A stretch of DNA of 30,997 bases from Candidatus Xenobia bacterium. GTDB lineage: Bacteria; Vulcanimicrobiota; Xenobia; RGZZ01; DASYBA01. Positions 7,980 through 30,997 of this stretch are shown here, in pieces. Each line of letters starts with the position of its first letter. Position 1 is the first letter of the stretch. The DNA lies in the NCBI GenBank assembly GCA_036501005.1, contig DASYBA010000456.1, positions 1-30,997 on the forward strand. Reading direction: 5' to 3'. Made by a program: the position numbers and the translations under genes. Below the pieces are notes generated by a model. The model was given only the letters and a program-made list of their open reading frames with translations. It ran no database searches and had not been told where the DNA came from.

Positions 7980-8618
7980 TCACCGCACCTCCGGATACCA
8001 CCGCCGAGACACTCGACCGCCGAGGCCCGCCCACGCCGCCAGCGCCAGATTGACGGCCATCTGCCGGACCGCGCCCCGCCGCACGAATCGCCGTGCCGAC
8101 GTGGTCACCGTCAGCGGCAGGACGACCGGCCCGAAACGACGCAGCCGCCGCCAGAACTCCACGTCCTCGAATGGTACCGTCTCGGAGAACCCGCCGAGCG
8201 CCTGGAACACCTCCCGTCGGACGAAGAATGCGGCGTCGCCGAAAGAGCACAGCGACCAGCGAGTGAACCCGGCATAGAAGGCGAGCAGCGGATGGGGCCG
8301 GTCAAACCGCAATCGGAAGCGACCGCCTGGAGCCGTCTGCCGTACCGCAGCCAGCGCCCCGGGGGGGAGCCGGGTATCGGCATGGAGGAACAGGATCACG
8401 TCCCCGGTCGCCACCGCGGCGCCGCGGTTCATCTGGGTGGCTCGGCCCCGAGGCGACCTCAACACGCACACGCCGGCACCAACCTGCTCGAGCGTCCCAT
8501 CGGTGCTGCCGCCGTCGACCACAATCACCTCATCGGGGCCGTGCGCCTGCAACAGGTCCAGGCTCTCTCGCACCTGGCCCGCTTCGTTGAGGACGGGCAT
8601 GACGACCGACACTCGCAT
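7980..8618 (-). CDS. Family 2 glycosyltransferase (short, about 212 aa)
   Basis: VSVVMPVLNE...VIVVDGGSTDGT...LFLHADTRLP motifs. Stop abuts the yebC stop. Confidence 0.8.
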   Translation of the reverse strand: MRVSVVMPVLNEAGQVRESLDLLQAHGPDEVIVVDGGSTDGTLEQVGAGVCVLRSPRGRATQMNRGAAVATGDVILFLHADTRLPPGALAAVRQTAPGGRFRLRFDRPHPLLAFYAGFTRWSLCSFGDAAFFVRREVFQALGGFSETVPFEDVEFWRRLRRFGPVVLPLTVTTSARRFVRRGAVRQMAVNLALAAWAGLGGRVSRRWYPEVR

Positions 8619-8659
8619 GTCGGCATCATACCCAGCCCGCGGTTTCGATAAGACAACGG

Positions 8660-9379
8660 ATGGGGGAAATGGACAGCGTGCTAGCGTGGTGGATGGCCCT
8701 CGCCCTGGCAGAAATCGGTTGGCCGCTTCGTGCCATGGGCCCGCGCCGGCCTCGATGGCAGCGAAACCTTGCCCTGGCGGCGATGGGCGGCGTCGTCGTC
8801 GCCTGCTTGGAGCAACCCCTGGTCGCCCAGGTGGCAGGCCGCGTTCCAGGGCTCTGCAGGCTCCTGCCCAGGCGCGCCCGGCGCCTGGGAGCGTGGCTTT
8901 TGATGGACTACACGATGTACGCCTGGCACGTCGCCACCCATAAAATCCCGCGCCTGTGGCGCTTCCACCGCATCCACCACCTCGACCGCGACATGGACAC
9001 CACCACCGCCCTGCGCTTCCACCTGGGGGAGATGCTGTGGTCGGTGCCCTGGAGGTTGGCGCAGGTCGTCGTGTCCGGCGCCGATGAGGGGGTCTACCGC
9101 CACTGGCAGCGCGCGCTGGCCCTCTGCATTTTGTTCCAGCACTCCAACTGGCGCCTCCCCGTCCGTGTCGATCGAGGGCTCGCCCGCTGGATCATCACCC
9201 CTCGCCTGCACGGCGTCCACCACGGCCGCGACGACCAGGACGTCAACTGGGGCAGCACGCTGGCCATCTGGGACCTGCTGCACCACACCTGGCGTTGGAA
9301 GGCCAGTGCCCAGCCGGTCGGACTGGATGGCGAGCCGGACCTGCCCGTCCCTGCCCTGCTCGAAGCCCCGTGGGCCTGA
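8660..9379 (+). CDS. Fatty acid hydroxylase / sterol desaturase superfamily membrane protein
   Basis: His boxes HVATH, HRIHHLD, HGVHHGRD and a terminal HH. Hydrophobic segments present. Start may be ATG 8669 instead. Confidence 0.75.
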   Translation: MGEMDSVLAWWMALALAEIGWPLRAMGPRRPRWQRNLALAAMGGVVVACLEQPLVAQVAGRVPGLCRLLPRRARRLGAWLLMDYTMYAWHVATHKIPRLWRFHRIHHLDRDMDTTTALRFHLGEMLWSVPWRLAQVVVSGADEGVYRHWQRALALCILFQHSNWRLPVRVDRGLARWIITPRLHGVHHGRDDQDVNWGSTLAIWDLLHHTWRWKASAQPVGLDGEPDLPVPALLEAPWA

Positions 9380-9433
9380 AGTTTTGCCTTTTGGCAACAT
9401 ATCGAAGAACGGCTCCAGCTATACTCACCATGG

Positions 9434-10249
9434 ATGATTCGAGAGTTCTTTCACCACCGGCTCCAACCCCAGGCTACCATGGATGGCCTCATGCAGGCAG
9501 CGCGGGCATCGACCCCTGACTGGACGCCTTCGACCCCCCTGTCCGACATTCGCAACGCCCACGTCACCAACACGCCGGCCGAGATGGAGACCGCCTTGCG
9601 CGGCGACGCCAACTGCCTGGAGGCCGACGTCCGGCTAGCGGGGGACGTCCGCCCCATGCCGGGCTATCGAAACCGCCCCGTCATCGCAGCCCACTGGGAC
9701 TGGGACACGCATGGCCTGACCTTGCCGGAGTGGTTGAAGGTGGGAAGTGCCTCTGGCCGCATGCTCAAACTGGACTTCAAGAGTGCGGCGGCCATCCGCC
9801 CGGCTTTGAAAGATTTGAAGGCGTCGGGCATCCCCGGCGAGCGGTTGATGCTGAACGGCGGCATCGACCTGCGCCGGGGCACGTCGCCTCTCGGCATCGC
9901 GATGTCAGTGCACAACCTCTTCTTTGCCAGCCACACCTCGGTCGGCATCTTGCAAGAGATGCGGAGGGCCTACCCGTCAGCCCTCATCGCCCTGTCGCCT
10001 TCCCACCAACCCCGCGCCGAACGCGACTATCGAAAAATCAGCGACTGCGCGACCGCGGTGGGTGGACCGCTGACCTTTCCGTTGGCCGCCAGCATGGTCG
10101 ACGAGGAAGTCGTCCGCCGGCTGAAGCCCTACGGCAGCGTATCGGTCTATGCCAGCGAGGGGTCTTTCAAAGTGACCGACGTGGCCAAGGACACCGAACA
10201 TTTCCGTCGCATGGGCGTGGACGGGGTCATCGACCTCGCCCAGCACTGA
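9434..10249 (+). CDS. Hypothetical protein, possibly PLC-like / GDPD-like phosphodiesterase fold (DUF2181/FAM151-like)
   Basis: NAHVTNTPAEMETALRGDANCLEADVRL has the H...E...E/D spacing typical of glycerophosphodiester phosphodiesterase-like folds. Weak call by motif only. Confidence 0.45.
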   Translation: MIREFFHHRLQPQATMDGLMQAARASTPDWTPSTPLSDIRNAHVTNTPAEMETALRGDANCLEADVRLAGDVRPMPGYRNRPVIAAHWDWDTHGLTLPEWLKVGSASGRMLKLDFKSAAAIRPALKDLKASGIPGERLMLNGGIDLRRGTSPLGIAMSVHNLFFASHTSVGILQEMRRAYPSALIALSPSHQPRAERDYRKISDCATAVGGPLTFPLAASMVDEEVVRRLKPYGSVSVYASEGSFKVTDVAKDTEHFRRMGVDGVIDLAQH

Positions 10250-14072: not shown

Positions 14073-15080
14073 ATGCGCATGCTGAGCGGCGACAAGAAAG
14101 AAGAGGAGGCCCGCTACGACGTCGCACTCCGGCCGAAGACGCTGGCAGAATATATCGGACAGGAGCGCATCAAGGAGAACCTCAAAGTCTTCATCCAGGC
14201 GGCCCGCCAACGCGGCGAACCCCTCGATCACGTGCTGCTGTTCGGACCCCCGGGGCTGGGCAAGACGACGCTGTCGAACGTCATTGCAAAAGAACTCGAG
14301 GTGCAGATCAAGGCGACCTCGGGACCGGCCATGGAGCGAGCCATCGATCTCCTGGTGGTGCTGGGCAACCTGGCGGAAAAGGACGTCCTCTTCATCGATG
14401 AAATCCATCGACTCCCCCGGGTGGTCGAGGAGATTCTCTACCCCGCCATGGAAGACTTCACGTTCGATAGGGTCATCGGCAAGGGGCAGGCGGAGCGGAC
14501 CCGCAAGATCCAGTTGCCCCCCTTCACCCTGGTGGGGGCGACCACCCGGGCGGGCGCCATCTCTTCACCCCTGCGGGGACGCTTCGGGATTGTCCTCACC
14601 CTCGACTACTATAGCGCCGAGAGTCTGCAGGACATCGTGACCCGCAGCGCCGGCCTGCTCGGCATTCCGATATCGGAGGAGGGGGCCCGAGAAATCGCGG
14701 TCCGAGCCCGGGGCACGCCCCGCATCGCCAATCGATTGCTCCGGCGTGTGCGGGACTTCGCCCAGGTGCGAAACGATCCCGAGATCAGCCGGGCGACGGC
14801 CGACTATGCCCTGCAACAGCTAGGGGTCGACCCGTTGGGCCTGGACGAGGTGGACCGGCGCATTCTCGACGTCCTGGTGAAGATGTACGCCGGGCGTCCC
14901 GTGGGCCTCGATACGCTGGCGGCCATGGTGCACGAAGAGTCCAATACCATTGAGGAAGTCTACGAGCCGTATCTCTTGCAGAAAGGCTTCCTGCAAAGAA
15001 CGCCTCGGGGCCGGGCGGCGGCGCCCAAGGCGTTCGAGTATCTGCGGGTGGCGCCCCCTCCGGAGCAGTTGGGCTTCTAG
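14073..15080 (+). CDS. ruvB: Holliday junction DNA helicase RuvB (AAA+ ATPase)
   Basis: Walker [11 protein letters not shown], Walker [10 protein letters not shown], sensor residues. ATG immediately after the ruvA stop. Confidence 0.97.
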
Positions 15081-16111
15081 GCTCTACGACGCCGATCGGC
15101 GTGGAGACAGAGCCCCACCAGCAACACGGCGACGGCCAAAGGAGCCGCGTGTGGGTCAACTTCCGGGGCGGCGGCCGGTCCTACGAACACAAAGGGGTCA
15201 ATGGACGCTCGGAATAGTGCGAAGCCTGGCGTGCCATTGGCAGGGAAACAAAGCGAGACCTGGGCGGTGTCAAAAAATTGCAGATCGGAGTACAGATTCC
15301 CGCATGGCGTGGTAAAAAAACCCGGGTGATAGACGGCCGTGCTGCTGCAGCAGATGGGCAATTGGCCGCACTCGGCGGGAAAGACGCACAGTCCGCTCAA
15401 ACAGGTGGGTGCCGTCACCACCATGTAGCAAACGCCTTCAGGACAGACGCCGCTAAAACATTGGCCTCCGAACGTCACCCGCGCGAAGGTTGAGGCGCGT
15501 CCGGTCCAGGTGGGACCGGGGCAGGAGCAGGCCGGGGTCGGACTGGGTATGACGAAACCTTGGGAAAAACCACAGGCACAAGCGGCCACATCATAGGTTT
15601 GCCCCGGTTGGAGCAAGATCGGCTGAAAGACCTTCATGCTCACGCGGGCACTGGCAGACTCCGCGGCGGTCGGGCAAGCTGTTGGACCAGTCCCGCGGCA
15701 GGCAGTCGGGCAATTGCACGCGACAGCGCCAGCCGTCAGTGTTAGAAAGCCGAAACTGTTGCAGACGCAGGTTCCCACCCTGATACAACTGCTGGAGTTT
15801 GGCCGGATGCTTGAGCGGAAGGCCTGGAGGCTGCCTTTTTGGCAGTACCTGCCGTACCAGCAGAAAATGCTGCCATAGGACCCGCTCGTGGTTCTACTCC
15901 CAGGAAAGCAGGTGTTGCCAAAGCAAGGCTGGGGGCCGTAGAAGCAGAAATTGCTCACGAGATTCCGGGCAGGGCAAAGGCAGGGGCCATAGCAACAAGC
16001 CGGTGCCAGGGCACCAAACGTCGGCGTCGCGGTCGCGGGCCCGACACTGCTCAACCACCACAGCAAGCCCACCAGAACCCCGAGTATCGATCGAATCAGC
16101 GATATCCGCAC
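15077..16111 (-). CDS. Cysteine-rich secreted protein with C-terminal PEP-CTERM-like sorting signal (PEVD motif, hydrophobic helix, RRRRA)
   Basis: GTG 16111 with AGGAGG about 7 nt upstream. Signal peptide [28 protein letters not shown]. About 40 Cys. C-terminus [34 protein letters not shown]. Stop shares CTAG with the ruvB stop. Confidence 0.6.
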
Positions 16112-20972: not shown

Positions 20973-21827
20973 CTACTGAGCGCGACGTCGTCGCTCGCCC
21001 AGCACGGCGAAGACCGCCAGCAACAAGGCCGTGGGGGCGCGTAGGGACCCGTCGTCCACTTCGGGGGCCCCGGTGGCTGAAGAAACGAGGGCAACGGAAA
21101 GATGCGGATCCATCACTGCCAGGGCGTTAGTGTCAAAAGTGGCAAACACGTGCGCTTCTTCGGCAAACTTCAAGGTCTCGATGGGACCGCTGGCGGTAAA
21201 ATCGAGGGAAAACGTGTCGAAACAGTTGGCCAGTCTGCAGGCTGCGGGACAGCAGGTCTTGGCGCCGCAAATGCACAGGCTGTCCTTACCGTGGGGGCAC
21301 AACCGCCACGTCCGGCAACTGTGGGTGCTGCCTCCGATGCAGATATCCACGTTGCCGCAAGCGTTGCCACAAACACAGGAAGAGGGTGGGACGGAAAAAC
21401 ATGGGGCACCGCAGGTCGAAAACGTCAACCGGTAGTTGCAACCTGTCGTCAGGCCGCTCAAGCAACCCTTGACGTGGATGCCGGCGAAGATGTTGACGCC
21501 CGAGCCGTTGCACGCAAATGCGGTAAACACGATGCTGGGACAAGGAGCCGCATGGGTCTGGACACAGGCAAAGGATCCCAGATCTGCAGACCCGCAGAGC
21601 CCACGATACACCTGGGTCGACGGGCGGCACGTCCGGCCAAAAGAGGGGCACGCCGTCCAGCCGCAAAATGTAGCGGCAGCATTGCAGCCCTTGTGGGTGC
21701 GGAAATCTCCGTTTCCTCCCGCCACGGTGGGCGCCGCATTCGCTTCTACCCCCGGCCTGGCAAGACACACCAGTACCGTGGCCAAAGCCACCAGCACGTG
21801 CGGCCACCGAAAGCCCTTTTGCTGCAT
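20973..21827 (-). CDS. Cysteine-rich secreted protein, paralog of 15077..16111, with the same PEVD-CTERM-like sorting signal
   Basis: ATG 21827 with GAGGAGGG 6 nt upstream. Signal peptide MQQKGFRWPHVLVALATVLVCLARPGVEANA. About 35 Cys. C-terminus SATGAPEVDDGSLRAPTALLLAVFAVLGERRRRAQ. Confidence 0.6.
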   Translation of the reverse strand: MQQKGFRWPHVLVALATVLVCLARPGVEANAAPTVAGGNGDFRTHKGCNAAATFCGWTACPSFGRTCRPSTQVYRGLCGSADLGSFACVQTHAAPCPSIVFTAFACNGSGVNIFAGIHVKGCLSGLTTGCNYRLTFSTCGAPCFSVPPSSCVCGNACGNVDICIGGSTHSCRTWRLCPHGKDSLCICGAKTCCPAACRLANCFDTFSLDFTASGPIETLKFAEEAHVFATFDTNALAVMDPHLSVALVSSATGAPEVDDGSLRAPTALLLAVFAVLGERRRRAQ

Positions 21828-21917
21828 CAATATCCCTCCTCGCCAGGCACGACAAGGAATTTCAATCCAAGGCACCGGATTCCTGTTCCCCACACGCTCG
21901 GCAGGCCCAGACCATGG

Positions 21918-22967
21918 CTAGACAGAGCGCCAGCGCAGCACCATCAAGGTGATGTCGTCGGGAAAGGTGGTCGCGGCCGTGCCGACGTGCTCTCGCAGGC
22001 GGCCCAGCAGATCGATGCTGCTGCCCTCTCCCGCCCCAACCAGGAGTTCGTCGACGCTCATGCGGCCGAGTCGGGAGCCGTCAGCCCGTATCGCATCGAC
22101 CAGGCCGTCGGTGTAGCCAAAGACTCGGTCGCCGCTGTGCAGTTGGCGCCGCTCCTGGGTATACTTGGCCTCCGACAGGACCCCGAGCATGACGCCGGTG
22201 GCCCCCAGCTCCTCGAACGCGCCGTCGTCCAACAGCAACACGGGCTCGTGGCCAGCGCTGGCATAGGTGAGGCTACCGTCCGATAGGTTCAGGACCATGT
22301 AGAACAGCGTGACGAACTTCTCACCCTCCAGGTGGCCAGCCAATCGCTCGTTCAGATAAGCCAGGACCTGGGCGGGATCCGACGTGCGCCCGGGCGCGTC
22401 GGCCAGCAGTCCAATCAATACGGAGGCGGCCAGGGCGGCCGGCGCCCCCTTGCCCGACACGTCGGCCAGGGCCACCATGAGCAGGTCGCCTTCCAGCGTC
22501 GCCTTGATGGCGTCTCCACCGAGCGACCCGGCAGGTTGGAACCAGGTGGCCAGATCTAGACTGGGGTGCCGGGGAACGCCCCGATAGAGCACCTCCTGGA
22601 GGGCCCGGGCCTGATCCAGCTCTCTCGCCATGACGTCGCGCATGGCGGTGATGACGCGCTGCTGATGGGCGAGCCGTGCCGAAACCACGGTGGTCGCGAC
22701 GACCATGACCCCGATGAGGAACTCGTTGGCCGCGACCGGCTGCCAATCAGTCACCTGGCTCTGGTAGGACAAGTCCGAGTGAAGCTGACAGAAGAAAGCC
22801 ACCACCGCCATGACGGCCGCCCAGCGCCAACCCCAGGTCCACCCCGTGAGGGCGACGGGGAAAAGATAGAGGATGCCCGCGACGATGCTCGGGTGGGTGG
22901 ACTCGTCCAGCAGCAGGACCGCCACAAACCACCCGATGACCAATACGGCCTGAACCCGTCTGCTCAT
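21918..22967 (-). CDS. Membrane-anchored PP2C-family (SpoIIE/RsbU-like) serine phosphatase
   Basis: Four N-terminal TM helices, then GGDAIKA...VADVSGKGAPAALAASVL...YTDGL PP2C motifs. Start ATG 22967 (AAGAGG 8 nt upstream) preferred over the ORF-track 23063. Confidence 0.75.
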   Translation of the reverse strand: MSRRVQAVLVIGWFVAVLLLDESTHPSIVAGILYLFPVALTGWTWGWRWAAVMAVVAFFCQLHSDLSYQSQVTDWQPVAANEFLIGVMVVATTVVSARLAHQQRVITAMRDVMARELDQARALQEVLYRGVPRHPSLDLATWFQPAGSLGGDAIKATLEGDLLMVALADVSGKGAPAALAASVLIGLLADAPGRTSDPAQVLAYLNERLAGHLEGEKFVTLFYMVLNLSDGSLTYASAGHEPVLLLDDGAFEELGATGVMLGVLSEAKYTQERRQLHSGDRVFGYTDGLVDAIRADGSRLGRMSVDELLVGAGEGSSIDLLGRLREHVGTAATTFPDDITLMVLRWRSV

Positions 22968-23089
22968 CCGACCAGCCTCTTCGCAGACGGGATTTACGCT
23001 TCCTTTACAATCGAGCGGCCGGCGAGCCACCCCTAGACGGGAGTCACCGTGCCCGGTGCCCAATCATGGCCGTCCAGGAGGTGGGATTC

Positions 23090-23914: not shown

Positions 23915-26134
23915 TCACTGCCCTCGTGAGGCGAGCAGCACCTCGTGCACCTTGTTGACCAGCGACTCCGTGGTAAACGGCTTTTGCAGCGTGTGCTCCA
24001 TCTCGCCGGCGCCGGTCGCCTCTGGAACGTAGCCGGACATGAAGAGCACCCGAGTCTCCGGCCGTGTCTTCGCCAGCTTGGCGGCCAATTCGACGCCGTT
24101 CATGGTGGGCATCACGATGTCGGTCAGCACCAGATGGATGCGGCCGGTGTGCTCGCTGCTCACTCGCAACGCCTCGACGCCATTACTGGCAACCAGCATC
24201 TGGTAGCCCTTGGCCCGCAGCACCCTCTCCGCCAGCCGGCGGATGGTCTCATCGTCTTCGACCAGCAACAGAGTCTCCCGACGCGTGGGCAAGAGGGGCG
24301 GATTCTGCTTCACCGCGCGGCGCCGAGCGGAGGCCGGCTGTGCGACCGCCGCGTCGGCCACTTGCGGAAGATAGACCCGGAAGGTTGTGCCTTGCTGGGG
24401 CACGCTCTCCACCTCGATGTGGCCCCCTCCTTGTTTCACGATGCCGTAGACCGTGGACAGCCCCAGACCCGTTCCCTTGCCCACCTCCTTGGTGGTAAAG
24501 AATGGCTCGAAGATGTGCGCCATGATTTGTTTGCTCATGCCGCACCCAGTATCTCGCACCACGATCTGGACGTAGCTCGACCCGCGGGCCCAGGGGAGAG
24601 ACTCGTCGACCGTCAGGCTGCAACATTCGATTTGAAGTTGCCCCCCCTTGGGCATGGCGTCCCGCGCGTTGACCGCCAGGTTCATGACAATCTGCTGAAG
24701 CTGGGTCGGGTCGGCCATGACGGAACCGGTGCCCGGGGCCAGCACCACCACAAGCTCGACGTCCTCGCCGATGATGCGCCTGAGCATGTCGTGCGTCCCG
24801 GCGATGACCTCGGCGACCGAGACCAATTGCACTTGCAGGGTCTTCTGGCGGCTGAAAGCCAGCAATTGCTGGGTGAGGGCTGCAGCCCGGTCGGAGGCCA
24901 TCTGGATCTGGCAGAGGTGATCGTAGGCCTCCGTCTCGGGGTCGAGTGTCCTCAATATCATGTCAGAGTAGCCCTGGATGGCCGTCAGCAGGTTGTTGAA
25001 ATCGTGGGCCACACCGCCAGCCAGACGTCCGATGGCCTCCATCTTTTGAGCCTGCAGGAGCTGTACCTCCAGCCGCTTGCTATCCGATACGTCCTTCAGG
25101 TTGAGCACAATGCCGGTGATTTCCCGGTGCAGCAGCAGATTGATGGCCCGGCCCTGCATGTAGGACCATTCATCGCGCCGGCGGTGCATGCGGAATTCCA
25201 CCGGCATGGCACGGTTGGGGGCTGACTGGACCTCCACGACGACCTGCTGCAGGGTGCTGCGGTCCTCTGGATGCACGAAGTCATAGAAGGAAAGCCCGGG
25301 CACGTAGCGGGTATGCTGTGCGATCAGCCGTCGAACCATGGGGCTGTGGTAGTGAACCATGCCTTGGGTATCGAGAATCAAGATGCAGTCCGACGAATAT
25401 TCAATCAGCACGCGGAAGCGTTCGGCCGAATGGCGCGTCGTCACTTCCAGCCCCCCGGAGCCGGACGCCGATGCGTTCCGCGACGCTGACGGGGCGGCCT
25501 CGAGAGGAGCCGCAGGCCGGGTGGTACCCGAGCTCGCCCACCATAGACCGCACTGGATGAAGCCGAGGCCACCCAGCAAGACTGGCGTCCAGGCCAGGTA
25601 GAACGGACTATGCCACCAGGCGGGCACAGTATCCTTGAGCAGGGCTCCGATCAGCAACAGGGTGGACGGTACTTGCCAAGGCTGGAAGGCCTTGCCGGCG
25701 TACGACTGCCAGCCCACCACAAGCAGTAGACCCAGAGTCACGACGGAAACGGCCGGCGACAAGACGCCGGGGGCCCCAAGCCAACCGACCGGCGACCAGA
25801 AGGCGCGTCGAACGCCCAGATCGGTCAGCAGCATCAGGGGCGGGACCAGCGCGGCCAGCGTGGCCGCCGTGATACGCCCGAGCCGTGACCCGCCATCCAG
25901 GTCCAGGAAAAAGAGGAGCAGGCTGCCCAAGGCGCAACAGGCCTGGAGCCGGAAGGACCCCATGGCGACGGCCGCCGATCGGGTCTGCCAGGAGACCAGC
26001 ACGGCCAGGCACCACACTGCCGTCACCAGCCCCAGTCCTGTCCGGCACCAGTCTCGGGGGCGCCGGGTCAGGCTGGCCGAGGTCGCTGCCGCGCCGCCGA
26101 GGAGCCCGAGCAGATACCACAAGGGTGGATTCAA
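23915..26134 (-). CDS. Hybrid sensor histidine kinase (about 6 TM N-terminal domain, PAS-like, HisKA, HATPase_c, C-terminal receiver)
   Basis: TTG start. H-box GGVAHDFNNLLTAI. HATPase VNLAVNARDAM, DTGCGM, GTGLGL. C-terminal REC LLLVEDDETIRR...LVLTDIVMP. Confidence 0.85.
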   Translation of the reverse strand: MNPPLWYLLGLLGGAAATSASLTRRPRDWCRTGLGLVTAVWCLAVLVSWQTRSAAVAMGSFRLQACCALGSLLLFFLDLDGGSRLGRITAATLAALVPPLMLLTDLGVRRAFWSPVGWLGAPGVLSPAVSVVTLGLLLVVGWQSYAGKAFQPWQVPSTLLLIGALLKDTVPAWWHSPFYLAWTPVLLGGLGFIQCGLWWASSGTTRPAAPLEAAPSASRNASASGSGGLEVTTRHSAERFRVLIEYSSDCILILDTQGMVHYHSPMVRRLIAQHTRYVPGLSFYDFVHPEDRSTLQQVVVEVQSAPNRAMPVEFRMHRRRDEWSYMQGRAINLLLHREITGIVLNLKDVSDSKRLEVQLLQAQKMEAIGRLAGGVAHDFNNLLTAIQGYSDMILRTLDPETEAYDHLCQIQMASDRAAALTQQLLAFSRQKTLQVQLVSVAEVIAGTHDMLRRIIGEDVELVVVLAPGTGSVMADPTQLQQIVMNLAVNARDAMPKGGQLQIECCSLTVDESLPWARGSSYVQIVVRDTGCGMSKQIMAHIFEPFFTTKEVGKGTGLGLSTVYGIVKQGGGHIEVESVPQQGTTFRVYLPQVADAAVAQPASARRRAVKQNPPLLPTRRETLLLVEDDETIRRLAERVLRAKGYQMLVASNGVEALRVSSEHTGRIHLVLTDIVMPTMNGVELAAKLAKTRPETRVLFMSGYVPEATGAGEMEHTLQKPFTTESLVNKVHEVLLASRGQ

Positions 26135-26256
26135 GGTCGGGCAAACTTCCCAGTCCGGGCCGGCTGCCCCTGCCTGGAAGGGATCAAAGCGTCAGGGACA
26201 AATGTCGGCGGGTGAGCCAGTCCCCCTACTTTCACCCTGCGGCAGGGCCGCTCGAG

Positions 26257-27660
26257 ATGTCGACCTACCAGTTCGACGACCCAAGCGATGCGGCCAGTAT
26301 TCGCCCTGCGAATGCCGCCTCGCCGGGGCCCCCTATCAGCGACACCCCGCTGCCGGAGCACCTGTGGGAGGTGATGCGGCAACGAGAAGCCCGAACCCTG
26401 GGGCGTGTGCACCTGCCCGACGGCCGTGTCCTGCTGGCTCGCGCCTGGCCTCTCGACGGGACCGGTGTGGGCGTTTTGTGGGAAGACGTCACCGGCGAGC
26501 AGCAGGCCAGTGAGCGTCAGCGCCGCCTGGACGAGCAGTTGCTCCAATCGCGCAAGATGGAGGCCATCACTCGCCTGGCCGGCGGCGTATCGCACGACTT
26601 CAACAATCTCATGACGGCCATCATGGGCTATAGCGATCTCATCATGTCCGAGATCGACGGAGAGGATCCGCTCCGCAGCGATATCCAGGAGATTCTGCAA
26701 GCAGCTCAGCGGGCCACCCACCTCACCCGCCAGTTGTCGGCCCTCAACCCCCAACGGATTACGCAGGGCTGCCGATTTGACGTCAACCAGAAACTGCGGG
26801 AGTGGGTCGGCCGGCTGGACAGCCTGGCCGGGAGCCGGGTGAAGGTCGACGTCGATACGGCCACCGAGGCTTGCACCGTGCTGATGGATCCGGACGATCT
26901 CGAGCAGGTGCTGGTGAACCTGGTCCTCAACGCCAAGGAGGCCATGATGGATGGCGGCTCCGTCTCCATCGCGGTGCGCCGCCGACACTTCGACGACATG
27001 GAACGCCTGGTGACCCTCGGGCTGGCCGCCCAGGAGTATGTAGAGATCGTCATCCGAGACACGGGGGCGGGCATGTCAGCGGAAGTTCTGTCCCGCATCT
27101 TCGAACCGTTCTACACCACCCGCAGCAAGGCTCGGGGCCTGGGACTGACGGTGGTGTACGGCATCGTGAAGACCGCCGACGGGGCCATCGAGGTAGAGAG
27201 TCTCGAGTCAGCCGGGTCGGTCTTTACCATTCACCTCCCGGCCTGCCCCGACGTGCCCCCGGCTGCCAACCCCGCGCCGCACGGCGGCGACAAAGTCATC
27301 CTGCTGGCCGAGGATGAGGAGATGCTGGGCGAGCTCATGCAGCGAATCCTTCGGCGGCGAGGGTTTCGGGTGTTGGCCGCTCGCAACGGGGCCGAGGCGC
27401 TGAAGATCGCCGAGGAGTTCGACGGGACCATCGACCTGCTCATCACCGACGTGGTGATGCCCGAAGTCACCGGTACGGAGCTCGCCGAACGGTTGCGACA
27501 CACCCGCCCGGCCACCCGGGTCCTGTTCATTTCCGGCTATACCGACGCCCGCATCATCCAGGAGAGCGTGCGGGTCGATCGGGCCGACTTCATGCACAAG
27601 CCTTTCACGCCCCAGGTGTTCGACGACAAGGTACGGGAGCTTTTGGTCCGCCCGACTTAG
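26257..27660 (+). CDS. Cytoplasmic hybrid histidine kinase (HisKA, HATPase_c, receiver). No TM
   Basis: H-box GGVSHDFNNLMTAI. HATPase LVLNAKEAM, DTGAGM, GLGL. REC ILLAEDEEMLGEL...LLITDVVMP. The ORF-track start 25885 is rejected because it overlaps the divergent kinase. Confidence 0.8.
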   Translation: MSTYQFDDPSDAASIRPANAASPGPPISDTPLPEHLWEVMRQREARTLGRVHLPDGRVLLARAWPLDGTGVGVLWEDVTGEQQASERQRRLDEQLLQSRKMEAITRLAGGVSHDFNNLMTAIMGYSDLIMSEIDGEDPLRSDIQEILQAAQRATHLTRQLSALNPQRITQGCRFDVNQKLREWVGRLDSLAGSRVKVDVDTATEACTVLMDPDDLEQVLVNLVLNAKEAMMDGGSVSIAVRRRHFDDMERLVTLGLAAQEYVEIVIRDTGAGMSAEVLSRIFEPFYTTRSKARGLGLTVVYGIVKTADGAIEVESLESAGSVFTIHLPACPDVPPAANPAPHGGDKVILLAEDEEMLGELMQRILRRRGFRVLAARNGAEALKIAEEFDGTIDLLITDVVMPEVTGTELAERLRHTRPATRVLFISGYTDARIIQESVRVDRADFMHKPFTPQVFDDKVRELLVRPT

Positions 27661-27690
27661 AGGGCTGCCGCCCCACTGGCCGACAGACCT

Positions 27691-28878
27691 TTACGACGTG
27701 AGTCGAACGGCCAGGGCGGTGAAGTCGTCCTGGAGGTGGAGGTCGCCCCGGTGCACCAAGACCCGGGCATGGATCCGTTCCACCAGCTCGACGGGCGAGA
27801 GCTGGGCGTCCTCTTGCAGCCACGCCAGGAGACCGGGCAAGGTCACGGGTTGTCCCGACGAGTCGGCTGCCTCCACCAGGCCGTCGGTGTAAAGGAACAG
27901 CGTGTCGCCGGGTTCAAGCGGTGTTTCGACCTCCGGATAGGGGCGCTCTCCGAACACCTCCGGATCGAACATGCCCAGGACCGGCCCCCCGACCTCCAGC
28001 AGCTCAACCGGTCGGCCAGGGCGCAGAAGAAGAGCAGGTTCCTGGGCCGCCTTGGTCCAGGTGAAGCATTTTCGCTGGGGGTCCAAGACCCCGTAGAAGG
28101 CGCTGGCGAAGTGACCGCCCGGAAACACCCGGGCCAGTCGCCGGTGCAGTTCTCGGAAACACGCGGCGGGGGCTCGCACCGTCCGCGTCATCTCGCTGGC
28201 CAGCACTTTGAACATGGCCGATAGCAAGGCAGCCGGCACGCCGTGCCCGCTGATGTCGGCCAGCAAAACCCCGAGCTGCTCGTCCGGCAGCTCGACAAAG
28301 TCAAACAGATCGCCGCCGATCTGGTTGGAGGGCGCAAACACGAACCCCGTCTCGATCCCCTTGCGCCGAGGCGGCTCGGCGGGCAGCATGGCCAACTGGA
28401 TGCTGCGGGCCAGGTCCAGTTCGTGGCGCATGCGCTGGTCACGGGCCGTCAGCTCGGCCAGGTACTGGCGGTTGAGGCTCTCCACGCGGGCGTAGCGCAG
28501 CGTGCGGGCCACCACTTCCTTGAAGTTCTCCATGCGCAAGGGTTTGGTGACGTAATCCAAGGCCCCCGAGCGAATGGCCCGCAAGGCGTCATCGAGCGCC
28601 GACGATCCGGTGACGATGACCACGCCGACATCGGGGGCAGCCGCCTTGACCGCCTCCAGCAGTTGAAAGCCGCTCAAGCCGTCCATGTCAAGGTCGGTCA
28701 AGAGCAGGGTGGGGGGATCCTGTCGCACGGCATCCAGCGCGGCCTGCCCGGTGGTAAAAGCCTCCACGTCCACCCCCAGTTTACGGAGCATCAGGGTCAA
28801 CAGGTTGGCCAGGACGGGGTCGTCGTCGACCACGAACACGCGGGCCGTGAAGGGCAGGACCTCCGAGGCGGGTGTCAA
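27691..28878 (-). CDS. Response regulator with PP2C-family phosphatase output (REC + SpoIIE/RsbU-like)
   Basis: REC RVFVVDDDPVLANLL...LLLTDLDMDG. PP2C IGGDLFDFVEL...LADISGHGVPAALLSAMF...YTDGL. Start proposed at TTG 28878, overlapping the upstream RR stop (TTGA). No in-frame ATG before the REC domain, so the start is uncertain. Confidence 0.7.
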   Translation of the reverse strand: MTPASEVLPFTARVFVVDDDPVLANLLTLMLRKLGVDVEAFTTGQAALDAVRQDPPTLLLTDLDMDGLSGFQLLEAVKAAAPDVGVVIVTGSSALDDALRAIRSGALDYVTKPLRMENFKEVVARTLRYARVESLNRQYLAELTARDQRMRHELDLARSIQLAMLPAEPPRRKGIETGFVFAPSNQIGGDLFDFVELPDEQLGVLLADISGHGVPAALLSAMFKVLASEMTRTVRAPAACFRELHRRLARVFPGGHFASAFYGVLDPQRKCFTWTKAAQEPALLLRPGRPVELLEVGGPVLGMFDPEVFGERPYPEVETPLEPGDTLFLYTDGLVEAADSSGQPVTLPGLLAWLQEDAQLSPVELVERIHARVLVHRGDLHLQDDFTALAVRLTS

Positions 28879-29519
28879 GCTGACGGTTGCGGCGACTGGG
28901 CCAGCCCTCGCTTGAACGCGTACAACACGGCACCGGTGCGCTCCCGCACGCCAATCTTGTCGTACAATGCGCGAAGCTGGGTCTTGACGGTGCTTTTCGA
29001 TACGGACAGGTGTCTCGCCAGGTCGTCGTTGGTGATGCCGGCGGACAGAAGCTGCAGTATCTCGCGGTCTCGAGGGGTCAAATCGTCCGGTTTGGAGCGG
29101 TCTCGGAGCTGGCTCGCGATGGCGTCCGTCGCACACGGGTGCCAGTAGCTGCTGCCGCCGGCCACCGCGGCGACGGCTCGAGCGAGATCCGGGGAGGACA
29201 CCGACTTCAGCAGATATCCGGCGGCCCCCATCTCCACCGCTTTCAGGATCATGCCACGGTCTTCGTGCATGGTCAAAACCAGCGTACCCACCCGGATGTC
29301 CTTGGCTCGCAATTGCTGCAGGAGCCAGAAGCCGTCATGCCCGGGCAGGGTGATGTCGAGGAGCAGCACGTCGCAGGCCTCCGAAGATAGCCACGCCAAG
29401 GCCGCCTCCGCGGTGCGAACGTCGGCCACCACGGCGACCCCCTCCAGATCGGTCAGCAGCCGATGGATGCCCTGGGCGAGAATGGCGTGATCCTCGACCA
29501 ACATGACTCTAATCGCCAA
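28875..29519 (-). CDS. NarL/FixJ-family response regulator (REC + LuxR-type HTH)
   Basis: Start placed at TTG 29519, giving MAIRVMLVEDHAIL, typical of the family, with GGGGAG 7 nt upstream. C-terminal LTPRDREILQLLSAGITNDDLARHLSVSKSTVKTQL. Confidence 0.8.
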   Translation of the reverse strand: MAIRVMLVEDHAILAQGIHRLLTDLEGVAVVADVRTAEAALAWLSSEACDVLLLDITLPGHDGFWLLQQLRAKDIRVGTLVLTMHEDRGMILKAVEMGAAGYLLKSVSSPDLARAVAAVAGGSSYWHPCATDAIASQLRDRSKPDDLTPRDREILQLLSAGITNDDLARHLSVSKSTVKTQLRALYDKIGVRERTGAVLYAFKRGLAQSPQPSA

Positions 29520-30297
29520 CGACAGGCTCCCCTCCGGGCAAGGCAAACCCCACCTCCGCCCCCTGAGGCGACATGCGAGTGATGGCAAAGGCGCCGCCAT
29601 GGGCTTCGATCACCCGCTGGCAGAGCCACCAGCGCAACTGCCGACGCCGGGCACGGTCGTCGTCGGGTAGCTCCGCCAGGGACTCCAGCAGCGTATCGCA
29701 ACCGCCGTCTCGCAGCGAGAAGCGGGCCCGGCCCTCCACCATGCCCATGGCGATGTCCAACGTGGCCCCGTCCAGAGAAGACTGCAGGGCGTTGGCCAGC
29801 ACCCCATCCAAGGCCTGCCCCATGCGGCGAACGTCGGCCTGCACCACCGCCGACCGAAGCTCGGTGCGAACCTCCACGTGCCGGCGCTGGTCGGGGGTCA
29901 GGAGGTTCAGATGGCGATCCAGGTGCGTCTGGACCAACGGCCCCAGGTCGACCTCCTCCCGCTGCAGTAAGAGCGGCTCCTGCAACACCGGGTCGACATA
30001 GGTGTCCAGCAGGACCCGAGCTGACTGGCACGCCGCTTCCATCTCGCCACAGTCGGCCTGGATCGCAGAGGTGGCCTGCGACTGAATCCAGCCGGCCAGA
30101 AACAACATGCCCTGCAACGCCGTGCGAAGATCGTGATTGAGGATTTGGAGGGTCGTCACCAGGAGGGCTTCACGCTCTCGCTGCGTCGCCTGCTCCGTCA
30201 CGCGTGTGGGTGAGCCCTGCCTCAAGGCCAGATATCCCCATCCTTCCCGATTCGGTTCCCTGGTGCCAGGATACCAGGAAGTCTCCCAGCGTGTCAA
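29509..30297 (-). CDS. Soluble NarL-partner-type histidine kinase (HisKA_3-like H-box + HATPase_c). Probably shorter than the listed ORF
   Basis: LQILNHDLRTALQG H-box. N/D/G boxes LANALQ, LRDGGCD, AHGGAFAI. No TM or sensor domain. Real start probably TTG about 30225 or GTG about 30200. Stop overlaps the RR start. Confidence 0.6.
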   Translation of the reverse strand: MTRWETSWYPGTREPNREGWGYLALRQGSPTRVTEQATQREREALLVTTLQILNHDLRTALQGMLFLAGWIQSQATSAIQADCGEMEAACQSARVLLDTYVDPVLQEPLLLQREEVDLGPLVQTHLDRHLNLLTPDQRRHVEVRTELRSAVVQADVRRMGQALDGVLANALQSSLDGATLDIAMGMVEGRARFSLRDGGCDTLLESLAELPDDDRARRRQLRWWLCQRVIEAHGGAFAITRMSPQGAEVGFALPGGEPVVGD

Positions 30298-30501
30298 CCA
30301 GCCACGATCCAGGTTTTCACGTCTCGCGGGCCCGGTACGGGGTCGGCATCACGAGGCGTCGAGCGCTTTTCCGATCAACCCCACCGCCCGAGCGATCGAC
30401 ATGCGGTACCAGCTCCAGCCACACTTGTCGTGCCGCCAAGAAGCGGCCCGCGTAGGGCTGAGGATTGTAGGGCCTGCACGACGCGGAGGAGAATCAGTGG
30501 C

Positions 30502-30997
30502 CATGGAACCTGGCACCTCCTTTCCGGGCACCATCCCAGTCGGCGCTGTGGTGGACGGCCGCTACCGGATTCTAGCGCCGGTCAAGGCCGGCGGCATGGG
30601 CGCGGTGTATCGGGCCGAGGACCTGCGACTATCCGATACCACGGTCGCGGTGAAGCAGATGCTGGACGCATCCGACCCGGACATGCAAGCGATTTTCGAA
30701 CGGCGCTTTCATGAGGAGATGAACATCCTCACCCAGCTTCGCCATCCCGGAATTCCCCGCGTGCTGGATTTTTTTCGCCACGACCAGAGCTGGTGCATCG
30801 TGATGGATTTCATCCAAGGCAGCAACCTCGAGGCACCGGGATTTCTGCCCATGTCTCCCGCCCGGGCGCTGGAAGTCGCTCGACAGGTTCTGCAGATCCT
30901 GGTCTACCTGCATGGCCAGACCCCTCCGGTGATGCATCGAGACATCAAGCCGGCCAACCTGATCCAGCTTGCTCAGGGAGGGCGCATCCTGTTGGTG
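30502..30997 (+). CDS. Hanks-type serine/threonine protein kinase, N-terminal part (continues past window end)
   Basis: YRILAPVKAGGMGAVYRAED (Gly loop), VAVKQM (VAIK), HRDIKPANL catalytic loop. GGAGGAG 11 nt upstream of ATG 30502. Confidence 0.8.

Follow-up and report, generated by a model that had tools for sequence, protein, structure and literature searches.

The contig DASYBA010000456.1 (30,997 nucleotides (nt); "the window" below means this stretch at its full length) belongs to an uncultured soil-type bacterium whose metagenome-assembled genome (MAG) is named Candidatus Xenobia bacterium, Candidatus Xenobia being a class of the phylum Vulcanimicrobiota (= Eremiobacterota, WPS-2). Its gene p2 encodes a 284 amino acid (aa) product at 20973..21827 on the reverse strand (HEY4000020.1 / VGO93_14190, labelled "hypothetical protein" by NCBI). 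This cysteine-rich product appears on balance to be exported by Sec to the envelope of a diderm bacterium and to carry a tripartite C-terminal sorting signal. The tail of p2, which is shared with a second gene in the window (p1) and with at least three further loci, is best read, with modest confidence, as a new variant of the exosortase-type sorting signal carried by an orphan Cys-rich family, and we infer that it is processed.

Gene p2 is confirmed as a real gene by its Shine-Dalgarno sequence and ATG, its signal peptide and tail, its codon score and its relatives at the protein level. The frame is open further upstream to a GTG at 21893, and the ATG at 21827 is the supported start because AGGAGG stands 7 nt before it and the NCBI annotation gives the same 284 aa. 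An initial annotation of the window had described p2 as a Cys-rich open reading frame (ORF) with an N-terminal signal and a PEVD-type tail, and all of these are seen in the translation. The signal peptide, MQQKGFRWPHVLVALATVLVCLARPGVEANA, has its predicted cut directly before AP and is laid out as MQQKGFRWPH-VLVALATVLVCLA-RPGVEANA; 24 of the 25 cysteines (8.8% of all residues) lie in the mature body, from residue 48 to residue 202; and the C-terminal tail is GAPEVDDGSLRAPTALLLAVFAVLGERRRRAQ, in which residues 254-284 read APEVD-DGSLRAPTALLLAVFAVLG-ERRRRAQ and which contains no cysteine anywhere (Table 1). Among the window ORFs of at least 80 aa, only p2 and p1 close with a hydrophobic stretch and then an Arg/Lys cluster, and the geometry of the two tails is the same.

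With regard to the body between these termini, none of the four full-length family members matched a Pfam or NCBIfam model at E-values up to 10, sub-threshold MYXO-CTERM scores excepted, and a profile search against PDB sequences gave chance matches only (scorpion toxins, E = 0.14). AlphaFold2, run with five-sequence alignments, returned low-confidence models (predicted local distance difference test (pLDDT) 39.4 for p2 and 33.9 for p1), which are confident at the two terminal helices only and show a few strands besides. For the p2 body our guesses are a surface protein stabilised by disulfides or a coat that binds metal. Other candidates were dropped: a lipoprotein, there being no lipobox before Cys21; full pairing of the cysteines, as the mature bodies contain 24, 30, 25 and 30 Cys and are not consistently even; and a jelly-roll carbohydrate-binding domain or planctomycete "YTV" protein, an idea prompted by a motif LxPGxxYxV that p2 lacks and that Pfam did not back at E-values up to 10.

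Relatives were sought exhaustively with HMMER among 1.84 billion protein representatives; the query, a two-protein profile (p1 and p2), gave five entries: p1 and p2 themselves as shortened gene calls, and three further proteins (Table 1). The family thus has at least five loci, i.e. p1, p2, VGO93_28555 (locus L030), L003 and L002. All five members carry the tail as APE[VI][DN], exactly 19 residues and [DE]RR[RH]R, with Ala at +9 and Leu at +12 (29 residues in all). At the predicted signal-peptidase site the four full-length members also have A-x-A and then [AST]-P-[TN]-[VFL]; they further share 24-30 Cys per mature body and a DP pre-tail motif, and a motif LxPGxxYxV is present in p1, L003 and L002 and absent from p2. 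The copy at L030 (600..1310; JGI contig Ga0376652_0127532) has a signal-peptide-like start, a Cys-rich stretch and an APEID tail in three different frames, with only a 77-aa C-terminal piece annotated; it is probably decayed, because two frame changes are required to join its parts. When word-indexed homologue searches were run with p2, p1 and the five-member alignment, p2 was the sole result. Gene callers shorten four of the five members (JGI 185 of 284 aa, PGAP 115 of 344, JGI 75 of 306 and JGI 140 of 300), and the family is therefore likely to be under-counted in protein databases. The initial annotation had proposed a substrate family, and this is borne out in the sense of a set defined by a common C-terminal sorting-type signal, with five loci and an invariant tail geometry.

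The relationship between p2 and p1 was compared directly, and here the termini and the interior behave differently, as the initial annotation had suggested when it described the two as sharing terminal signals with divergent sequence between them. BLASTP aligns the last 72 residues of p2 and p1 with 32% identity (E = 3e-5), whereas without the signal peptides and tails the alignment shrinks to a 32-residue N-terminal stretch (37.5% identity, E = 0.005). Once composition was controlled, by Smith-Waterman comparison of the mature bodies against composition-preserving shuffles, the similarity of the p2 and p1 bodies was not significant (z = 1.2), and p2 against L003 scored 0.7; the other pairs gave 11.7 (p1-L003), 6.1 (L003-L002), 4.7 (p1-L002) and 4.5 (p2-L002). 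Proteins p1 and L003 are clearly homologous (E = 2e-19 across 200 residues), and L002 connects to every other member with body z-scores of 4.5-6.1. Against a profile of the other three bodies, 104 of 1000 shuffles of the p2 body did as well as the body itself. It appears from these alignments that p2 is tied to p1 and the family by three things only, namely the DP pre-tail motif of ~15 residues, the tail and the 32-residue N-terminal stretch. Between themselves, p2 and p1 have in common the last ~50 residues and a short motif at the N-terminus. The term "paralogs" applied to p2 and p1 in the initial annotation is therefore secure for the terminal modules only, and finds no full support in the bodies.

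The tail was next used as an 86-nt fixed-gap degenerate DNA pattern, built from the five Xenobia tails only. It has two matches in the window against 0.00 expected (100 shuffles), and among the window and the collected family loci it matches four known family genes and nothing else. A scan of larger collections retrieved 26 loci, two in a 185,579-species genome collection (one Rhodovulum MAG and one alphaproteobacterial MAG) and 24 in a metagenome collection, with 0 matches in viral contigs. Apart from one chance match (L018), all retrieved loci (25/26) end in ...[AS]APEIDAxSGxAAIALLLGxLGLVxERRRR, which is the alphaproteobacterial VPEID-CTERM tail. Three of these alphaproteobacterial tails, taken as examples, scored 31.0, 37.2 and 41.0 bits on the VPEID-CTERM model TIGR04161 (cutoff 33) and map residue for residue, without gaps, onto model positions 1-29, so that the geometry of TIGR04161 is that of the Xenobia tail. 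At locus L029 two tandem substrate genes adjoin a 547-aa XrtE (237.6 bits on TIGR04162, cutoff 150); tblastn with this XrtE finds a homologue beside the substrate gene in eight retrieved loci, and XrtE adjoins the substrates in every alphaproteobacterial locus with enough flank. The substrates at L029 (8715..12425; also at L006, L027 and L015) are two tandem Ser/Thr-rich proteins of ~230-260 aa, divergent from XrtE, and other alphaproteobacterial contigs have Gly/Asn-rich substrates of ~80 aa, some with a duplicated SAPEIDA[ST]S (L007, L022 and L023).

The Xenobia tails thus share with the VPEID-CTERM/XrtE system the P-E-[IV]-D motif after Ala, the 19 residues up to an acidic residue and RRRR, the Ala at +9 and Leu at +12, and the position at the extreme C-terminus of proteins with a signal peptide. 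When the last ~90 residues of the Xenobia and alphaproteobacterial groups were compared with hhalign, the 32 columns of the tail were all that aligned (probability 97.3%, E = 1.8e-11, 53% consensus identity). The two differ in the spacer, which is AGSGxAAIALLLG in VPEID-CTERM and a Pro/Ala/Val-rich xxxAxxPVAAVL in Xenobia, and in the bodies, which are unrelated (0-2 Cys and Ser/Thr- or Gly/Asn-rich vs 24-30 Cys). They also differ in genomic context and taxonomy, as XrtE is adjacent in the Alphaproteobacteria and there is none near the copies from the Vulcanimicrobiota/Eremiobacterota. Typical PEP-CTERM tails have a shorter spacer than those of Xenobia and do not usually carry an acidic residue ahead of the Arg cluster. 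The PEP-CTERM signals (XrtA, XrtB) resemble the Xenobia tails in their tripartite Pro-Glu motif, helix and Arg cluster, and they too occur in diderm environmental bacteria, with many substrates scattered over each genome (10.1101/2023.06.07.544157), but they have PEP instead of PE[VI]D, and the Xenobia copies lack an exopolysaccharide-locus context save for one RmlD-like gene beside p1. The MYXO-CTERM signals have the general tripartite design and give weak sub-threshold hidden Markov model scores with the Xenobia tails; the invariant Cys of their signature motif (10.1101/2023.06.07.544157) is absent from APE[VI][DN]. We therefore do not file the Xenobia tail as VPEID-CTERM, although it would work in the same way and VPEID-CTERM is the nearest relative known. 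Literature searches on VPEID-CTERM and on exosortase in Eremiobacterota returned no papers.

A tripartite design defines the sortase, exosortase, archaeosortase, rhombosortase and myxosortase signals (bioRxiv 10.1101/2023.06.07.544157), and its general elements are all present in the family: a signature motif, a hydrophobic segment and a terminal basic cluster, on proteins with an N-terminal signal peptide. As all five members keep the register of the tail while their bodies diverge to non-significance, it behaves like a recognition signal, and since it is closest to the VPEID-CTERM/exosortase E tail, reading the family as a set of substrates is reasonable. It is taken as a new variant because it falls below the VPEID-CTERM cutoff and the window has no exosortase. 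An exosortase-type system would also be compatible with the Xenobia envelope, since the sole cultured member of the phylum is a diderm, with an inner membrane, thin peptidoglycan and an outer membrane with lipopolysaccharide (PMC9758169). In the sequence of events that we propose, p2 would be exported by Sec and cut by signal peptidase I after A-N-A, after which the Cys-rich body would fold oxidatively outside the cytoplasm, with many disulfides probable. The C-terminal helix would act as a transient inner-membrane anchor with ERRRR in the cytoplasm, and APEVD would be recognised by a membrane-embedded sorting enzyme whose gene lies elsewhere in the genome; the likeliest candidate is a Cys protease or transpeptidase of the exosortase family, comparable to XrtE for VPEID-CTERM. 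Removal of the helix would then pass p2 on to surface attachment. Cleavage, disulfides, enzyme identity, attachment and surface display are what we infer from the protein sequence. Proteins p2 and p1 would belong to a set of at least three or four substrates scattered over the genome of the organism, and because of this dispersal a many-to-one arrangement fits better than a dedicated cassette of enzyme plus substrate. More tentatively, and as a possibility that we would not press, Xenobia may have a sorting system of its own, with a "PEVD-CTERM" and a dedicated exosortase subfamily as a distant sister of VPEID-CTERM/XrtE, and with an orphan family of ~10% Cys as cargo that would form a disulfide-cross-linked layer or a metal-binding coat at the cell surface.

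Several observations weigh against an exosortase-type signal. Pfam and NCBIfam scans of the 31-kb window and of L002, L003, L030 and L031 turned up no homologue of an exosortase, a CPBP protease or a rhomboid, and tblastn of the L029 XrtE against the same sequences gave a best E of 1.1. None of the Xenobia tails reaches the TIGR04161 cutoff of 33: p2, p1, L003 and L002 give no score, and P0005 (the L030 copy) gives 9.6 bits (E = 0.95). There was no match to PEP-CTERM (TIGR02595) at E up to 10 with full proteins or tails, although HMMER filters may hide very weak ones, and the MYXO-CTERM model (TIGR03901) gave 9.9-15.2 bits, below its cutoff of 20 and covering only the helix and Arg cluster. 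The hhalign score between the Xenobia and alphaproteobacterial tails is partly by construction, because our own pattern had selected the alphaproteobacterial tails. In addition, the family is tiny and its members come from one or two metagenomes, so that the conservation samples little evolutionary depth.

The main alternative is that p2 is a plain type-I membrane protein, in which the signal peptide is removed, the helix and Arg cluster form a permanent stop-transfer anchor in the inner membrane, APEVD is a juxtamembrane structural element and no sorting enzyme takes part. A hydrophobic helix followed by basic residues is what the ordinary positive-inside rule predicts, there is no sorting enzyme near the family copies, and the tails fail every curated sorting-signal model, all of which would fit such an anchor. 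An invariant A-P-E at a fixed distance of 19 residues from the Arg cluster would however be superfluous for an ordinary anchor on bodies that have diverged, the geometry is the same as that of VPEID-CTERM, which adjoins its exosortase, and the hydrophobic core of the p2 tail is short at about 11-14 residues; we therefore consider a plain anchor rather unlikely.

A different alternative concerns the role of p2, and places it with the upstream gene for a membrane PP2C phosphatase, as a co-transcribed output or partner of envelope signalling. The initial annotation had noted that p2 lies 90 nt downstream of a PP2C gene with four transmembrane segments on the same strand, which is correct (four hydrophobic segments and a gap of exactly 90 nt, Table 1), and had suggested co-regulation, which does not find comparative support. 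The PP2C ORF (21918..23063, reverse strand) is open to a TTG at 23063, its likely start being the ATG at 22967 that is also used by JGI. The gap contains no promoter-like or terminator-like site and no Rfam family, and its folding is no better than that of shuffled sequences (z = 0.23); an Rfam scan of the whole window found nothing. The shared strand, the short gap without a terminator-like hairpin and the many signalling genes in the region would all fit a functional link. Among the family members whose neighbours were seen (p2, p1, L003 and L030), however, a PP2C neighbour is found at p2 only: p1 follows the RmlD-like gene at a distance of 26 nt, L003 has a PLD-like gene downstream of it, and L030 is flanked by an HNH gene on one side and a PTS EIIA-HPr-EI fusion on the other. 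Furthermore, p2 has a strong Shine-Dalgarno sequence of its own and a GC content at third codon positions (GC3) of 0.71 vs 0.82 in the PP2C gene. The JGI assembly of the same population (contig Ga0376652_0003396, metagenome 3300036780) differs from the window by a single base, at window position 22263, where the window has TAT (Tyr) and the JGI contig has TAG as codon 235 of the PP2C gene; the phosphatase is there split into calls of 234 and 107 aa and p2 is identical. This TAG is either a population polymorphism which knocks out the phosphatase, or an assembly error. Co-transcription of p2 and the PP2C gene is possible, nothing indicates a functional link, and coupling of p2 to the phosphatase is accordingly quite unlikely.

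Very unlikely, too, is that the tail is a sorting signal cut by an enzyme other than an exosortase, such as a stand-alone glutamic intramembrane protease of the CPBP/myxosortase type or a rhombosortase. MYXO-CTERM and its relatives, with 13-15 bits, are the only curated models that score most of the tails, and the L029 XrtE is itself an exosortase fused to a CPBP protease domain (matches to TIGR04162 and TIGR03008), so that a CPBP enzyme may take part in the processing of such tails. The myxosortase-type motif has an invariant Cys (10.1101/2023.06.07.544157), though, which APE[VI][DN] lacks, a rhombosortase would require a GlyGly motif that the tail does not have, and the MYXO-CTERM scores reflect the helix and Arg cluster only, below cutoff.

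That the p2 frame is merely a chance opening in GC-rich DNA is effectively refuted already. The window has 62-65% GC and is crowded with long overlapping ORFs, many of more than 200 aa, among them a spurious 394-aa ORF (GC3 0.53) on the strand opposite p2 which overlaps the certain PP2C gene, and ORF length is for this reason weak coding evidence. The GC3 of p2 and p1 (0.71 and 0.68) is below the 0.82 of the neighbouring genes, PP2C included, which makes both compositionally atypical, and the JGI gene call covers just the last 185 aa of p2. Of the six frames, that of p2 reaches the highest codon score, albeit a slightly negative one, with its own stop as the sole in-frame stop; it also has a canonical Shine-Dalgarno sequence with ATG, the signal peptide and the tail, protein-level relatives at other loci where the DNA is different, and a full-length NCBI annotation.

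Every distinct C-terminal sorting signal so far has led to a dedicated processing enzyme and a distinct mode of surface attachment, and here the signal would come from a phylum with a single cultured representative, in which envelope biology is almost unknown. The pattern APE[VI][DN]-19-[DE]RRRR would give a precise handle for finding the cognate enzyme by co-occurrence and for listing surface proteins, and its cargo is a family of ~10% cysteine, without detectable relatives or a predictable fold, that protein databases under-represent. In practice the consequence is modest, as this would be one more flavour in a well-populated class and not a new principle.

Table 1. Features of p2, its neighbourhood and the other members of the family (positions are those of the window unless a locus is given).
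Feature	Position	Strand	Basis or remark
Coding sequence of p2, stop TAG 20973..20975 included	20973..21827	-	best codon score of six frames
Shine-Dalgarno AGGAGG, 7 nt upstream of ATG 21827	21835..21840	-	direct sequence reading
p2 signal peptide, residues 1-31: basic n-region, 13-residue hydrophobic core, A-N-A; mature N-terminus APTV	21735..21827	-	cleavage predicted
p2 Cys-rich body, residues 32-202, 24 Cys	21222..21734	-	without Pfam, NCBIfam or PDB relative
p2 pre-tail segment, residues 219-253, motif A-x-[ILVM]-D-P-x-[FL]-x-[VI]	21069..21173	-	motif common to family
p2 signature motif A-P-E-V-D, residues 254-258	21054..21068	-	A, P and E invariant in 5/5 members
p2 19-residue spacer with hydrophobic helix DGSLRAPTALLLAVFAVLG	20997..21053	-	Ala +9 and Leu +12 invariant in family
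p2 acidic residue, Arg cluster and C-terminus, ERRRRAQ	20976..20996	-	read from translation
Intergenic gap, PP2C stop to p2 start, exactly 90 nt	21828..21917	-	coordinates
Membrane SpoIIE/PP2C phosphatase, four N-terminal hydrophobic segments; neighbour of p2	21918..22967	-	PF07228, E = 2.3e-42
p1, second family member, 344 aa, 31 Cys, signal peptide; tail AAPEVD-19 aa-DRRRRA	15077..16111	-	tail pattern at 15084..15169
P0003, 306-aa ORF	L003 and L031, same metagenome as window		HMMER
P0004, 300-aa ORF	L002, metagenome 3300011120		HMMER
P0005, HEY4002858.1 / VGO93_28555	L030, same MAG as window		HMMER

The remaining genes of the window encode a vault-like protein, a histidine kinase and response regulator, YebC, a glycosyltransferase, a fatty-acid hydroxylase, a Menorin-family protein, a pyridoxal-phosphate (PLP) decarboxylase, RuvC, RuvA, RuvB, the RmlD-like protein, a TetR-HlyD-ABC-ABC2 export set and, alongside PP2C, PPK2, further kinases and a Ser/Thr kinase. 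The vault-like gene (547..3027, reverse strand) is an 826-aa ORF, a bacterial gene that resembles vault proteins, with Pfam matches to domains of the eukaryotic major vault protein (MVP_shoulder, 5.2e-24; Vault_3, 2.8e-7; and, weakly, Band_7); it has no NCBIfam match, and its exact sequence is absent from the protein collection. A predicted secreted protein at 5616..6527 on the forward strand, within the ORF 5520..6527, has the signal peptide MKNLMGTTFTALLAATALAVA followed by ~15 repeats of the GGGGGFH/GGFH type and a Tyr/Pro-rich stretch, without a Pfam or NCBIfam match; its gene model is uncertain, as long ORFs overlap it on both strands. In the region 7980..10249 the glycosyltransferase barely reaches the cutoff of TIGR04283, "arsenosugar biosynthesis glycosyltransferase" (183.6 bits vs 182), and adjoins the fatty-acid hydroxylase-family gene, which has a weak OlsE-like match, and the Menorin-family gene. 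Finally, positions 23915..30997 form a dense signalling cluster with two hybrid histidine kinases, a LuxR-type response regulator, a response regulator fused to a second SpoIIE/PP2C domain (27691..29136) and a Hanks-type Ser/Thr kinase which runs off the end of the window.

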